A DNA stretch of 64,000 nt from Gammaproteobacteria bacterium (lineage in GTDB: Bacteria; Pseudomonadota; Gammaproteobacteria; WFUO01), in assembly GCA_015484945.1 (NCBI GenBank), contig WFUO01000064.1, positions 1,373 through 65,372 on the forward strand. The letters are read 5' to 3'. Below the pieces are notes generated by a model, which saw only the letters and a list, made by a program, of their open reading frames with translations, had not been told where the DNA came from and made no database searches. A program made the position numbers and the translations under genes. This document shows positions 11,979 to 15,210 of the stretch, one piece after another (the stretch's first letter is position 1; every line of letters starts with the position of its first letter).

Positions 11979-13199
11979 ATGGCACTGATCGTCCAGAAAT
12001 ACGGAGGCACCTCGGTCGGCAGCGTCGAGCGCATCGAGCATGTGGCCGACAAGCTGATCGACTGGCGCAAGCGTGGTCACGATCTCGTCGTGGTCGTATC
12101 AGCCATGAGTGGTGAGACCAACCGGTTGTTCGAGCTGGCCCACAGTATCAGTGAGCACCCAGTGCCGCGTGAGCTTGACGTCCTGTTGTCCACCGGAGAG
12201 CAGGTGACCATCGCCCTGTTGTCCATGGCGCTGCACAAGCGCGGATACGATGCGCGTTCCTATACCGGTTCGCAGGTCCACATTCTCACCGACAACGCGC
12301 ACAACAAGGCGCGCATTCGCGAGATAGACAGCCAGCGTATCCATGCCGATCTCAAGGCCGGGCGCATCGTCGTCGTGGCCGGTTTTCAGGGTGTGGATGA
12401 TGAAGGCAATATCACCACCCTTGGACGTGGCGGTTCGGACACCACAGCCGTGGCACTGGCAGCGGCCCTGAAGGCCGAGGAATGCCAGATCTACACCGAT
12501 GTCGATGGCGTTTATACCACCGATCCACGGGTCGTCCCGCAGGCCAGGCGCCTGGACCGCATCACCTTTGAGGAAATGCTGGAGATGGCCAGCCTGGGTT
12601 CCAAGGTGCTGCAGATCCGCGCGGTCGAATTTGCCGGCAAGTACAACGTACCACTGCGTGTCCTGTCCTCGTTCGAGGAAGGTGATGGCACGCTGATCAC
12701 CTATGAGGAAGAAGGTATGGAAGAAGCGCTGATTTCCGGTATCGCCTTCAATCGCGACGAGGCCAAGCTCACCGTTCTTGGTGTGCCGGACCAGCCCGGT
12801 GTGGCGCACAAGATACTGGGCCCCGTCGCCAACGCCAATATCGAAGTCGATATGATCGTACAGAACATCGCCGAGGATGCCAGTACCGACTTTACCTTTA
12901 CCGTGCACCGGAACGATTACCGTAAGGCGCTGTCCATACTTGAGGATATCGCAAAGGAACTTGGTGCGCGCGAAGTCATCGGCGACGACCAGATCGTCAA
13001 GATCTCGCTGGTCGGGGTAGGCATGCGCTCGCATGCCGGCATCGCCAGCACCATGTTCGAGACCCTGGCCCGGGAAGGCATCAATATCCGCATGATTTCG
13101 ACATCCGAAATCAAGGTTTCCGTGGTCGTGGATGAAAAATATCTGGAATTGGGCGTGCGTGCCTTGCACGAGGCCTTCGAACTCGACCAGGCCGGCTAA
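11979..13199 (+). CDS. lysC: Aspartate kinase
   Basis: From ATG 11979 it reads MALIVQKYGGTSVGSVERIEHVADKL...VVVVSAMSGETNRL..., with C-terminal ACT domains, ~406 aa. Confidence 0.95.
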   Translation: MALIVQKYGGTSVGSVERIEHVADKLIDWRKRGHDLVVVVSAMSGETNRLFELAHSISEHPVPRELDVLLSTGEQVTIALLSMALHKRGYDARSYTGSQVHILTDNAHNKARIREIDSQRIHADLKAGRIVVVAGFQGVDDEGNITTLGRGGSDTTAVALAAALKAEECQIYTDVDGVYTTDPRVVPQARRLDRITFEEMLEMASLGSKVLQIRAVEFAGKYNVPLRVLSSFEEGDGTLITYEEEGMEEALISGIAFNRDEAKLTVLGVPDQPGVAHKILGPVANANIEVDMIVQNIAEDASTDFTFTVHRNDYRKALSILEDIAKELGAREVIGDDQIVKISLVGVGMRSHAGIASTMFETLAREGINIRMISTSEIKVSVVVDEKYLELGVRALHEAFELDQAG

Positions 13200-13213
13200 C
13201 CCGAATGTTGCAC

Positions 13214-13317
13214 CAGCCGAACCGTACTGAAAACATAAGCAACTGAAACAGCGTACAAAATGGATAATGACAGTAGATTGCCACCTGTAACAGTTTGTTC
13301 ACCGTACGGTTCGGCTG
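13214..13317. repeat. 14-bp perfect inverted repeat (cagccgaaccgtac / gtacggttcggctg) separated by 76 nt
   Basis: The arms lie at 13214-13227 and 13304-13317, directly downstream of the lysC stop in the 349-nt lysC-csrA spacer. Confidence 0.8.
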
Positions 13318-13548
13318 ATGCAATATCCGGGCTAACGCTATACATGCACACCGGCATCCTATATCCTTGTCAGTGGCAGGGTTAAGCCGCGACCAGGGTT
13401 CCCGGGGATGCCGGAGAACAACAACAAACCGGGAAATCTTGTGCTTTAGATCTGGTGACAATGGCCGCTACACTGCACACAACGGCGCCAATGATCACAG
13501 GATCGTGTGGGCATATTTGGTGATTGATAGACAGCAAGGAGACAACAA

Positions 13549-13820: not shown

Positions 13821-13849
13821 TTCAACTTTTTCCCGGCTGTTGGTATGAT
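13821..13849 (+). promoter_or_regulatory. Candidate sigma-70 promoter of the tRNA-Ser/tRNA-Arg region
   Basis: TTCAAC, a 17-nt spacer, then TATGAT. It lies immediately after the csrA terminator. Confidence 0.4.
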
Positions 13850-13884
13850 TTGCGCCTGTTTCCGGGTGCCCGGCGGGTTGGGGT

Positions 13885-14002
13885 GCGGAGCGCCCGAGTA
13901 AGGCGCACCCAATCAGGAACAGCCGCGCCGTTGCATGAGTCAACGAAACGGCATGGTTGGGCGATGCAAAAAAATGTTTCGGAGAGCTGGCCGAGTGGCT
14001 GA
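13885..14002 (+). repeat. 118-bp direct repeat copy 1 (tRNA-Ser leader plus first 22 nt of tRNA-Ser)
   Basis: 117/118 identical to 14080-14197. It ends with ggagagctggccgagtggctga, the 5' end of tRNA-Ser truncated in the D-loop. Confidence 0.95.
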
Positions 14003-14095
14003 CAAGCAGCCGCCCTGGCGGCTGCGCAGAACGCTGGAGGCATCGGAGATGCCGACGGCGGCCCCGAAGGGGCGAGGGCGCGGAGCGCCCGAGTA
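14003..14095 (+). repeat. Four-hairpin element, copy E1 (93 nt)
   Basis: Layout: CAA, P1 (gcagccgc/gcggctgc), GCAGAAC, P2 (ggcatc-gga-gatgcc with an extended imperfect stem), GCCCCGAAGGGGC, GAGG, P4 (gcgc-gga-gcgc), CCGAGTA. It is flanked by tRNA-Ser D-loop bases: ggctga on the left and aggcgcaccc on the right. Confidence 0.85.
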
Positions 14096-14197
14096 AGGCG
14101 CACCCAATCAGGAACAGCCGCGCCGTTGCATGAGTCAACGAAACGGCATGGTTGGGCGACGCAAAAAAATGTTTCGGAGAGCTGGCCGAGTGGCTGA
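14080..14197 (+). repeat. 118-bp direct repeat copy 2 (runs into the intact tRNA-Ser)
   Basis: See 13885-14002. This copy continues into the complete tRNA-Ser gene. Confidence 0.95.
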
Positions 14198-14265
14198 AGG
14201 CGCACCCCTGCTAAGGGTGTATGGGTTAACGCCCATCGAGGGTTCGAATCCCTCGCTCTCCGCCA
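14176..14265 (+). tRNA. tRNA-Ser (anticodon GCU)
   Basis: A 90-nt class II cloverleaf. Acceptor ggagagc/gctctcc, anticodon arm caccc-ctGCTaa-gggtg, long variable arm atggg..cccat, T-arm cgagg-gttcgaatc-cctcg, encoded CCA. Confidence 0.97.
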
Positions 14266-14310
14266 TATAACAAAGGGGCCCAGTGGGCCCCTTTGTTATA
14301 TGGCGGAGAG
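14256..14310. repeat. 26-bp perfect palindrome that includes the tRNA-Ser 3' end
   Basis: ctctccgccatataacaaaggggccc, loop agt, then gggcccctttgttatatggcggagag. The left arm begins inside the tRNA acceptor 3' strand. Confidence 0.95.
14279..14310 (+). repeat. 32-bp direct repeat, copy 1
   Basis: cccagtgggcccctttgttatatggcggagag is identical to 14465-14496. The two copies bracket a 154-bp insert that carries E2. Confidence 0.95.
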
Positions 14311-14339
14311 TGAGGACTTGGTTTGGACCCTGCGTTCGA

Positions 14340-14415
14340 CAAATCGCCATGGATGGCGATTTGCACAGCGCCTAAGGCGCTGCCCGAAGGGCGAGGCACA
14401 GGGATGTGCCGAGTG
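14340..14415 (+). repeat. Four-hairpin element, copy E2 (76 nt, most divergent)
   Basis: Layout: CAA, P1 (atcgcca-tgga-tggcgat), tt GCACAG, P2 (cgcc-taa-ggcg), ct GCCCGAAGGGC, GAGG, P4 (caca-ggga-tgtg), CCGAGTG. Flanks are gcgttcga on the left and aatcccgagc on the right, which resembles a T-loop. Confidence 0.8.
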
Positions 14416-14464
14416 AATCCCGAGCTTTTAGCGGTGTATTCTTGCAAGATCACAACCAGGCTGT

Positions 14465-14496
14465 CCCAGTGGGCCCCTTTGTTATATGGCGGAGAG
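14465..14496 (+). repeat. 32-bp direct repeat, copy 2
   Basis: Identical to 14279-14310. Confidence 0.95.
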
Positions 14497-14532
14497 CGGC
14501 TCTGCTTCGTCCGGTTTAAGACGATTTTATAC

Positions 14533-14561
14533 TCGACATGGTTTTGACCGATCGGTATAAT
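14533..14561 (+). promoter_or_regulatory. Candidate sigma-70 promoter for tRNA-Arg(ACG)
   Basis: TCGACA, a 17-nt spacer, then TATAAT. The -10 element ends 18 nt before the mature tRNA 5' end. Confidence 0.55.
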
Positions 14562-14579
14562 CTCGCTTCCTCATACATA

Positions 14580-14656
14580 GCGCCCGTAGCTCAGCTGGAT
14601 AGAGTACCTGGCTACGAACCAGGCGGTCGGAGGTTCGAATCCTTCCGGGCGCGCCA
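14580..14656 (+). tRNA. tRNA-Arg (anticodon ACG)
   Basis: 77 nt. Acceptor gcgcccg/cgggcgc, D-arm gctc..gagt, anticodon arm cctgg-ctACGaa-ccagg, T-arm ggagg-ttcgaat-ccttc, encoded CCA. Confidence 0.97.
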
Positions 14657-14664
14657 TACATGAG

Positions 14665-14686
14665 ACCGCCTTCGGGCGGTTTTTTG
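14665..14686 (+). terminator. Rho-independent terminator after tRNA-Arg
   Basis: accgcc-ttcg-ggcggt followed by a T6 run. Confidence 0.8.
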
Positions 14687-14764
14687 ATATCTCGACGATA
14701 AATTACAGCGGATTCGAACCTCCGACGTTTCAATCAGGGCGGTTCGACAAGCGGCGGGAGCCGC
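14666..14764 (+). repeat. 99-bp direct repeat, copy 1
   Basis: Identical to 15112-15210. It contains the terminator, an inverted tRNA-Arg T-arm fragment, and the CAA-P1 part of E3. Confidence 0.95.
14710..14726 (-). other. Inverted 17-nt copy of the tRNA-Arg(ACG) T-arm
   Basis: ggattcgaacctccgac is the exact reverse complement of tRNA positions 14626-14642 (gtcggaggttcgaatcc). It is duplicated again at 15156-15172. Confidence 0.9.
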
Positions 14765-14830
14765 GCAGAACATCGTCGGCATCGAAGATGCCGACGATGG
14801 CCCCGAAGGGGCGAGGCCGCAGGCCGAGTA
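14748..14830 (+). repeat. Four-hairpin element, copy E3 (83 nt)
   Basis: Layout: CAA, P1 (gcggc-ggga-gccgc), GCAGAA, P2 (13-bp perfect stem catcgtcggcatc-gaa-gatgccgacgatg), GCCCCGAAGGGGC, GAG, P4 (ggcc-gca-ggcc), GAGTA. Flanks are ggttcga on the left and atccttccgggcgcgcca on the right. Confidence 0.85.
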
Positions 14831-14848
14831 ATCCTTCCGGGCGCGCCA
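14831..14848 (+). pseudogene. Displaced copy of the tRNA-Arg(ACG) 3' end (T-loop to CCA, 18 nt)
   Basis: atccttccgggcgcgcca is identical to 14639-14656. Confidence 0.9.
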
Positions 14849-15111
14849 ATATAACCCGCATGTTCCACCAGTCGAACAACGCTTGGGGGCATGCGGTTAA
14901 TCTCTCCAATAGGCCTTATCGTCATAACAAGCCGTGGTGCCGGGTATTTCCCCTAGCGTTGTTCTATCCCGATTCCGGCGGTTTCTCGCTCGCTGTGGCT
15001 TGGTTTTCACTCAAGCCATAGAGTGGCTATGGCATTCGTTGCAAACCGGCGCCACAGCGGCTGCGAATTCCGCCGGTTCTCGGGATCCTGGTGAAACCTG
15101 CGGGTTATGAG

Positions 15112-15210
15112 CCGCCTTCGGGCGGTTTTTTGATATCTCGACGATAAATTACAGCGGATTCGAACCTCCGACGTTTCAATCAGGGCGGTTCGACAAGCGG
15201 CGGGAGCCGC
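15112..15210 (+). repeat. 99-bp direct repeat, copy 2 (includes a second copy of the terminator hairpin)
   Basis: Identical to 14666-14764. After the P1 hairpin it diverges (agcaagtcccc instead of gcagaac). Confidence 0.95.

Follow-up and report, generated by a model that had tools for sequence, protein, structure and literature searches.

We found that the 64,000-nucleotide stretch of contig WFUO01000064.1 from a Gammaproteobacteria bacterium analysed here (the window) carries three copies, E1, E2 and E3, of a four-hairpin element in the locus alaS, lysC, csrA, tRNA-Ser(GCU), tRNA-Arg(ACG), ppk, ppx. They are probably copies of a non-autonomous insertion element without an open reading frame (ORF), which in enterobacteria makes up the core of the RtT/tyrT repeats. 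The coordinates and four-hairpin anatomy given in a first-pass annotation of the window (Table 1) were borne out, as were the conserved linkers CAA, GCAGAAC/GCACAG, GCCC(C)GAAGGG(G)C, GAGG and CCGAGT, between stems that vary from E1 to E3, and the description of the flanks as tRNA-derived loops interrupted at a GA^A step (^ marks the insertion point). Folded in isolation, E1, E2 and E3 reach -57.7, -39.5 and -49.6 kcal/mol, each with four hairpins, at z-scores of -4.3, -4.9 and -5.7, and none of 200 shuffled sequences was equally stable.

The same annotation could not place the element in any described RNA family. Novelty in this sense is not supported: its core is homologous to RtT (Rfam RF00391, the tyrT 178-bp repeat). 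A match of the core to a described family had been named as the finding that would speak against novelty, and the homology to RtT is such a match, yet the window copies lie below the Rfam threshold and the non-enteric branch is not called by Rfam. At gathering thresholds, an Rfam scan of the window returned tRNAs only. The sole RtT match in a permissive scan covers 14692-14848 (E3), with 16.6 bits (E 5) against a gathering score of 45, and neither E1 nor E2 matched RF00391 in either scan. Enteric loci retrieved with the window's core pattern score 51.6-105 bits on RF00391, and the E. coli tyrT/tyrV repeats, of which the element is the core, carry the PGAP label 'RtT sRNA (small RNA), processed from tyrT transcript'.

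The kinship was also recovered by a covariance model, R1, built from 22 non-enteric copies, E2 included, and no E. coli sequence. R1 matched the E. coli tyrT repeats with 23-24 bits (E ~4e-4) and every other enteric RtT core as well. One non-enteric locus (L004) passes both models, its copy with 92.9 bits on R1 and its unit with 45.9 bits on RtT; in 15 other non-enteric loci no Rfam family was called. Searched with R1, the window yielded E2, E1, E3 and a weak degenerate copy, E0, only. E2 scores 83.7 bits (E 4e-19), a value to be read with the caveat that E2 is among the training sequences of R1, and E0 reaches 13 bits (E 0.16) with filters off. Judged from these sequence comparisons, E1-E3 are remote members of an RtT-related branch outside Rfam coverage.

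The likeness extends to the surroundings. RtT (rttR, 3' of tyrT/tyrV in E. coli) shares with the window the homologous core P1, AAC, P2, CCCGAAGGG, GA-P4-GAGUA, the position of the element in a T-loop remnant followed by a tRNA 3'-end copy with CCA, and the tandem [tRNA 3' end, spacer, element] units. The E. coli 178-nt unit consists of a tRNA-Tyr 3' end with CCA, a spacer ending in ggggaaggatgagaagcttcgaccaaggttcga and the element ctcgagcgccagcgagagagcgttgccgcaggcaacgacccgaagggcgaagcgcgcagcgctgagta. The position typical of RtT, which is 3' of a tRNA, in tandem and closed by a tRNA 3'-end copy including CCA, is found in E3 (repeats D2 and D6) and in decayed form in E2, and is absent from E1, whose site is a D-loop 5' of tRNA-Ser. 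Unlike RtT, the window copies have GGA-type P1/P4 loops rather than GAAA or GCA loops, E1 has a D-loop site and 5' arrays with a promoter, and E2 and E3 do not have the complete closing stem of the minihelix. In Rfam, RtT is classed among the cis-regulatory RNAs of enterobacteria and not among mobile elements. Dispersed rtT-like repeats were noted by Naville and Gautheret 2010, who named them bacterial interspersed mosaic elements (BIMEs; PMC2965389). In the literature searched, we found no description of RtT as a mobile element that targets tRNA loops.

A scan with the P3-P4 core pattern in one genome per species gave at least 120 loci. Among the matches listed, three were chance matches inside coding sequence and the others follow the four-hairpin plan; the taxa represented there include many gammaproteobacterial orders, Mariprofundus (Zetaproteobacteria), Nitrosomonas (Betaproteobacteria), Desulfobacterota, Holophagae and Verrucomicrobiota. 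Discrete and ORF-less, the element measures 58-100 nt and has the layout 5'-C, P1, (G/A)AC, P2, P3 (CCC..GGG), GA, P4, GAGU(N)(A)-3'. At E <= 0.001, R1 recovered 130 copies in 89 sources. In their alignment, which was fitted to R1 so that the following figures have to be read with this caveat, 93.5% of the cells are paired compared with 67.2% in shuffles, and 539 cells, as against 150, are changed on both sides, with hundreds of such double-sided changes in P1, P2 and P4. The covariation score was 0.487 compared with 0.115 in shuffles (reached by 0 of 500) and 0.03-0.04 after sliding the partners. The invariance of P3 stems from the search pattern, of which P3 was a required part. Chance GC-rich palindromes as an explanation are ruled out by the fold shuffles together with the covariation. 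In three Rhodanobacter loci with head-to-head copies (L078 1965-2390, L107 6845-7012 and L008 6831-6990), each pair combines two distinct subfamilies, one of which has UUGG..CCAACA in place of CGAGG..CCGAGU. Its tandem G-A pairs are replaced by U-A pairs, which supports pairing at those positions.

Among the options raised in the first-pass annotation, a miniature mobile element targeting tRNA loops is supported by a site seen both filled and empty, by insertions in three types of tRNA loop, and by insertions in ERIC (enterobacterial repetitive intergenic consensus) repeats and other MITEs (miniature inverted-repeat transposable elements). The pepB-iscX spacer of E. coli occurs in three states, without ERIC, with ERIC, and with ERIC plus a 67-nt element. 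The empty site reads GCAGGA^AGGCGG and the filled site GCAGGA[CAAAAC...CCGAATC]ACGCGG, without target duplication; of 5,426 complete E. coli genomes, 425 carry the filled 67-nt allele, each of them once. When the empty ERIC is folded as single-stranded DNA, the GA of the site lies in an internal loop, at so low an ensemble frequency that this indication is weak. The 65-67-nt insert in ERIC copies of both Klebsiella and E. coli is this element. Sharp in 1997, and Wilson and Sharp in 2006, reportedly described insertions of ~70 bp at specific sites within ERIC, also called intergenic repeat units (IRU). A second E. coli site with ERIC plus element was seen in the bsmA-yjfN spacer of strain 06-00048 (L139, 1501-1693), the top-scoring hit of the Klebsiella query.

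Within tRNA genes, the same precision is seen in three loops. In Photorhabdus, otherwise complete tRNA-Lys genes are split exactly at GGTTCGA^ATCC in the T-loop. In L004, five tandem 5' halves of tRNA-Ser(CGA) are each interrupted in the anticodon loop, at CTCGA^AAA, and are followed by the intact gene and two T-loop units, which makes seven copies around a single tRNA-Ser. In Xanthomonadales, the element sits at CTTGA^AAA in the anticodon loop of tRNA-Ser(UGA). D-loop sites are those in the tRNA-Ser of the window and, judged from their flanks, of Porticoccus copies. The head-to-head copies of the three Rhodanobacter loci flank a 4-nt TCGA palindrome, that is, they occupy both strands of a T-loop, and deleting both copies in L078 restores GGGTTCGAATCCC. 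The element also follows its own end: head-to-tail arrays show the junction GAGTA|CAAATG. The sites are unpaired positions of hairpin-forming sequences, namely D-, anticodon- and T-loops, the ERIC internal loop, other MITEs and the end of the element's own copies.

Across 113 distinct contexts, a sample dominated by T-loops, the left flank ends in GA in 66, in A in 85 and in TTCGA in 33, and the right flank begins with A in 97. More than half of the copies (54%) have a complete tRNA gene at most 400 nt away, compared with 6.9% of the bases in the same loci, and tRNA-Ser and tRNA-Arg are the most frequent tRNA neighbours. The element begins with C and ends with GAGU(N)A; neither terminal inverted repeats nor target-site duplications are seen, so that it is not a classical MITE, which has both. 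The GTTC/CTTG target of IS91-type elements fits the T-loop and the anticodon loop of tRNA-Ser(UGA), but not ERIC (GCAGGA^). An integron attC site is likewise dismissed, being one long imperfect hairpin with RYYYAAC / GTTRRRY, whereas here four hairpins stand apart from one another and the ends are of another type. Neither phages nor plasmids appear to carry it: 2.9 million viral contigs (IMG/VR) gave only 11 matches, and the seven 'plasmid' matches without exception fall in non-mobilizable records, 0.5-5.4 Mb long and in several cases chromosome-sized, which we take to be mislabelled chromosomes or megaplasmids.

Two side observations concern other settings of the element. In a Thiohalobacterales metagenome-assembled genome (MAG; L043, L046, L049, L088, L090, L097 and L115), a MITE of ~220 nt with inverted repeats TTAAGGAnCCTCTGATTAATT encloses a 58-nt copy on at least seven contigs; the idea that this high-copy version is the end of an insertion sequence (IS) was refuted, as it is the element inside the 220-nt MITE. 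In Holophagae (L030, L058, L065 and L092), the element starts at a tRNA 3' end, its first three bases being the CCA; CACCA or a tRNA 3' fragment comes next, at times in direct tandem.

The region around the window copies consists of arrays of [tRNA piece, spacer, element], as is apparent from the repetition of the flanking blocks, with E0 at one end and a 17-nt stub, E4, at the other; both had been overlooked in the first pass. On the tRNA-Ser side, direct repeat D1 (13881-14002 and 14076-14197; 122 nt, 98% identity) places an exact copy of tRNA-Ser nt 1-22 (13981-14002) to the left of E1, and the final 20 nt of E0 are identical to the end of E1. The flanks of E2, gcgttcga and aatccc, derive from a tRNA-Ser T-arm that has decayed; the orthologue of E2 in Idiomarina (L038) retains ...ggttcga[E]taatccctctctccccgcca. 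Further upstream, tggcggagagtgagg is complementary to the tRNA-Ser 3' end and represents the 5' strand of an RtT-type minihelix, a layout also found in Idiomarina L038 and in the L004 units. On the tRNA-Arg side, direct repeat D2 (14666-14764 and 15112-15210; 99 nt, 100%) comprises the tRNA-Arg terminator, the T-loop remnant and the element's first 17 nt. Among ~150 sampled copies, the closest relative of E1 is E3 (83.6% over 61 nt), and the relation is reciprocal; E1, in a D-loop of tRNA-Ser, and E3, in a T-loop of tRNA-Arg, have a lineage-specific P2 in common.

Table 1. Element copies, flanks, spacers and tRNA genes at the window locus
Feature	Position (strand)	Description	Score or repeat
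E0, degenerate copy	13823..13900 (+)	directly after the csrA terminator	
Repeat D1, copy a	13881..14002 (+)	element's final 20 nt, aggcgcaccc, spacer with presumed tRNA-Ser promoter, tRNA-Ser nt 1-22 (13981-14002, to GGCTGA in the D-loop)	
E1	14003..14095 (+)	93 nt, four hairpins; at D-loop GGCTGA^AGG of duplicated tRNA-Ser 5' fragment	R1 27.9 bits
Right flank of E1, aggcgcaccc	14096..14105 (+)	repeats tRNA-Ser nt 23-32; same bases as 14198-14207 of the intact gene	
Intact tRNA-Ser(GCU)	14176..14265 (+)	called by ARAGORN	Rfam tRNA 56.5 bits
Left flank of E2	14301..14339 (+)	tggcggagagtgagg, then T-loop remnant ...gcgttcga	inverted repeat I2
E2	14340..14415 (+)	76 nt, canonical form of the family; P1 loop CAUGGAUG, P4 loop ACAGGGAUGU	
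Right flank of E2, aatcccgag	14416..14424 (+)	decayed T-loop and T-stem 3' remnant	
Intact tRNA-Arg(ACG)	14580..14656 (+)	promoter-like site 14533-14561	
Spacer R, copy 1	14666..14747 (+)	tRNA-Arg intrinsic terminator, inverted tRNA-Arg T-arm copy (14710-14726), T-loop remnant cagggcggttcga	repeats D2, I4, I5
E3	14748..14830 (+)	83 nt; at T-loop GGTTCGA^ATCC of tRNA-Arg 3' fragment	R1 23.9 bits
Right flank of E3	14830..14848 (+)	exact copy of the final 19 nt of tRNA-Arg, T-loop to CCA	repeat D6, 100%
Spacer R, copy 2	15112..15193 (+)	terminator called at 15109-15128	repeat D2, 100%
E4 stub	15194..15210 (+)	17 nt, 5' end (hairpin P1) of an E3-type copy; end of array	end of repeat D2

Such precise interruptions of tRNA loops, in which deletion of the element restores tRNA continuity, would also be expected of a bacterial tRNA intron at non-canonical positions that is removed to give a working tRNA, and the otherwise complete tRNA-Lys copies of Photorhabdus seem to favour this. 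In that respect, the element resembles archaeal non-canonical tRNA introns and bacterial group I tRNA introns, from which it differs by its pseudogene-fragment hosts and by showing neither a bulge-helix-bulge nor a group I core. The interrupted tRNA copies are fragments or redundant extras, with an intact gene alongside wherever the locus is readable, which rules out an intron. In the window, the host pieces are fragments of 22 and 19 nt. The interrupted copies of L004 are without T-arm and acceptor 3' strand and stand beside an intact gene, those of Photorhabdus have T-stem mismatches and lie next to intact genes, and in all three Xanthomonadales loci with the intact gene within the contig (L034, L089 and L119) this gene adjoins the element copies. 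In addition, the element occurs in ERIC and on the antisense strand, and Rfam scans of the window gave no match to a ribozyme family. The 'intron-like' option of the first-pass annotation, for which we see next to no chance, was dropped, as the interrupted pieces in the window are all fragments and elsewhere an intact gene adjoins every checked copy inside its contig.

The tRNA 3'-end direct repeats, which run from T-loop to CCA (14830-14848) as is typical of attL/attR, and the few copies near the ends of prophage contigs could point to islands or phages that integrases once inserted into and excised from tRNA genes, with the arrays as scars and the element as an old attachment-site arm. We consider this very improbable. 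The repeats enclose neither an integrase nor an island, the genes downstream are ppk and ppx, and the units measure only ~190 nt; the same element also occupies D-loops, anticodon loops, ERIC and MITEs, and is as rare in viral contigs as stated above. At best, att scars were the source of some redundant 3' fragments that were later struck by the element.

An insertion element, the reading we prefer, could act at the DNA or at the RNA level. The copy in the E. coli ERIC is antisense to iscX-pepB, the Rhodanobacter pairs occupy opposite strands of one palindrome, and a terminator scan places E3 and the E4 stub behind intrinsic terminators. G-U pairs (40 of 2,355 cells) are not enriched over A-C pairs (31), which leaves no strand signal. 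These four points favour transposition at the DNA level. In this scheme the element would move as DNA, most likely single-stranded, by means of a trans-acting enzyme that would recognize the similar terminal hairpins P1 and P4; a candidate is an HUH/Y1-type 'peel and paste' enzyme as in the palindrome-associated transposable elements (PATEs) of IS200/IS605 or in repetitive extragenic palindromic (REP) sequences with their REP-associated tyrosine transposases (RAYTs). Insertion would kill the tRNA copy. The interrupted tRNA copies are always fragments or spares, which implies that only insertions in spare copies survive, whether these are att-type 3' fragments, tandem genes or duplicates of a part of the gene. 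From there, [tRNA piece, spacer, element]n arrays may have been built as the repeated tRNA pieces recombined unequally. In the window, these would be [promoter + tRNA-Ser 5' 22 nt + E1] on the upstream side of tRNA-Ser, whereas tRNA-Ser and tRNA-Arg are each followed downstream by [tRNA 3' end + terminator + E]. Transcribed together with the tRNA, the arrays would give by-product RNAs, the known case being the E. coli rtT RNA. The proposal of a processed RNA co-transcribed with the tRNA operon, also made in the first pass, gains from the analogy with this RNA, but loses from the terminator in front of E3 and from the antisense orientation of one E. coli copy.

Known systems offer a partial parallel. 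Like PATEs and REP sequences or their doublets (REPINs), which depend on Y1 enzymes or RAYTs, the element has no terminal inverted repeats or target duplication, appears to insert 3' of a short motif, has similar hairpins near both ends, forms head-to-head doublets and tandems, and uses targets that can fold as single strands. Unlike these, it has no Y1 enzyme found near a copy, no GTAG or CGTC tag, a low copy number and two extra internal hairpins, and its outer hairpins lie 0-3 nt and 5-6 nt from the ends. Its insertion motif (GA/A) is shorter and looser than known PATE/REP targets.

Several observations weigh against an insertion element. No transposase is linked to it and no copy contains an ORF; the ORFs beside the arrays are housekeeping genes (alaS, lysC, csrA, ppk, ppx), so that a transposase at this place was discarded as a candidate. 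A tblastn search with Y1/RAYT queries, a weak test as a trans enzyme may lie anywhere, found none in the window or in ~0.9 Mb of loci. Copies in tRNAs show a sense-strand bias of 59:11, which the palindromic TTCGAA target alone does not explain. Copy numbers are low and polymorphism was seen at one E. coli locus, because of which insertion and precise deletion are indistinguishable at pepB-iscX. Stubs of 11-24 nt at array ends in four genera, among them Photorhabdus, Dickeya and Serratia, have no firm explanation. Finally, the specific retention of GGA in the P1 and P4 loops and the compensatory changes in apparent tRNA-Ser orthologues could reflect selection on RNA.

This last point leads to a further alternative, in which the element is a selected, structured RNA of the RtT sRNA type that rides on tRNA transcripts, its spread being secondary. 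P1 and P4 would be CsrA/RsmA sites, each element would hold one dimer, and arrays would be sponges coupled to the transcription of tRNA operons. GGA motifs are bound by CsrA, and sRNAs with multiple such sites titrate it (PMC4894983). In the element, GGA occurs in the loop of P1 in 84 of 118 copies, of P4 in 79 and of both in 69, compared with only 13 for P2, and its consensus context is C-A-GGA-U-G. The CsrB repeat is CAGGA(U/C/A)G and the consensus from in vitro selection (SELEX) with CsrA is RUACARGGAUGU; we take the context in the element to match both. In the window, E2 has two GGA loops (CAUGGAUG and ACAGGGAUGU), E1 two (P2 and P4) and E3 one. The alternative would also accommodate the compensatory differences between apparently orthologous tRNA-Ser-linked copies, the report of E. 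coli rtT RNA as a processed product and the seven copies around one tRNA-Ser in L004. With the CsrB, CsrC, RsmX, RsmY and RsmZ sponges, the element shares GGA in hairpin loops, the CAGGAUG context and the presence of two sites, or more in arrays.

We nevertheless regard this alternative as unlikely. Unlike the Csr/Rsm sponges, the element has no Rfam match and no dedicated promoter was seen; it is mobile and tRNA-linked, and its enteric RtT copies have GAAA, GAAG or GCA loops without GGA. The antisense ERIC copy in E. coli, the position of E3 behind a terminator and the missing G-U enrichment also speak against it, and none of the five Csr/Rsm sponge models matched in the window at E up to 10. 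A gene for csrA lies near the element in only 6 of ~115 loci, which indicates that its adjacency in the window reflects synteny, and a functional linkage to csrA was rejected on this ground. Two similar terminal hairpins are equally expected for a dimeric transposase, and mobility would still be needed to account for the filled and empty site and for insertions in multiple contexts. Both ideas could be combined: the RtT core might be an unclassified non-autonomous transposon of at least five phyla that seeks unpaired GA in tRNA hairpin loops, probably as single-stranded DNA, and whose terminal hairpins double as CsrA/RsmA sites, so that each insertion would graft a CsrA-dimer module onto a tRNA-operon transcript as a mobile sponge. 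This combination seems quite improbable to us.

For decades, the rtT/tyrT repeat has been a curiosity of the E. coli map without an agreed function. The window ties it to a family far wider than Rfam covers. On the comparative evidence, its core is an insertion module that chooses tRNA loops and other hairpins, which recasts RtT arrays as traces left by a mobile element and not as a dedicated RNA gene. The window copies are divergent variants of the known RtT, and no account of its transposon-like behaviour was found in the literature searched. For annotators, this provides a reason for pseudo-tRNA fragments and assembly breaks beside tRNA genes. It also defines a search target, an enzyme that would recognize two GGA-loop hairpins and cut unpaired DNA on the 3' side of GA. 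Should the CsrA-type loops be functional, the element would represent a rare transposable protein-binding RNA module.

Some further features of the locus were observed. A 99.9%-identical MAG contig (L122, 4217-4739; GCA_027076455.1) contains one extra [122-nt unit + E1], either a copy-number variation or an assembly effect; other contigs of this organism break inside repeats. A hairpin with 97% complementarity over 32 nt at 14251-14315 takes in the tRNA-Ser 3' end and could compete with acceptor-stem folding; its 3' arm occurs again at 14465-14498. The tRNA-Arg 3' fragment is separated from the second terminator repeat by a 262-nt insert (14849-15110) with 21-nt terminal inverted repeats (14851-14871 / 15088-15108) and a predicted fold of -131 kcal/mol (z -9.3), which looks like a MITE or a structured RNA. 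Just after lysC, a palindromic element of ~140 nt (13196-13335) starts with a related inverted-repeat end, CTAACCCGAATGTTGCACCAG; it and the 262-nt insert may be members of one MITE family.

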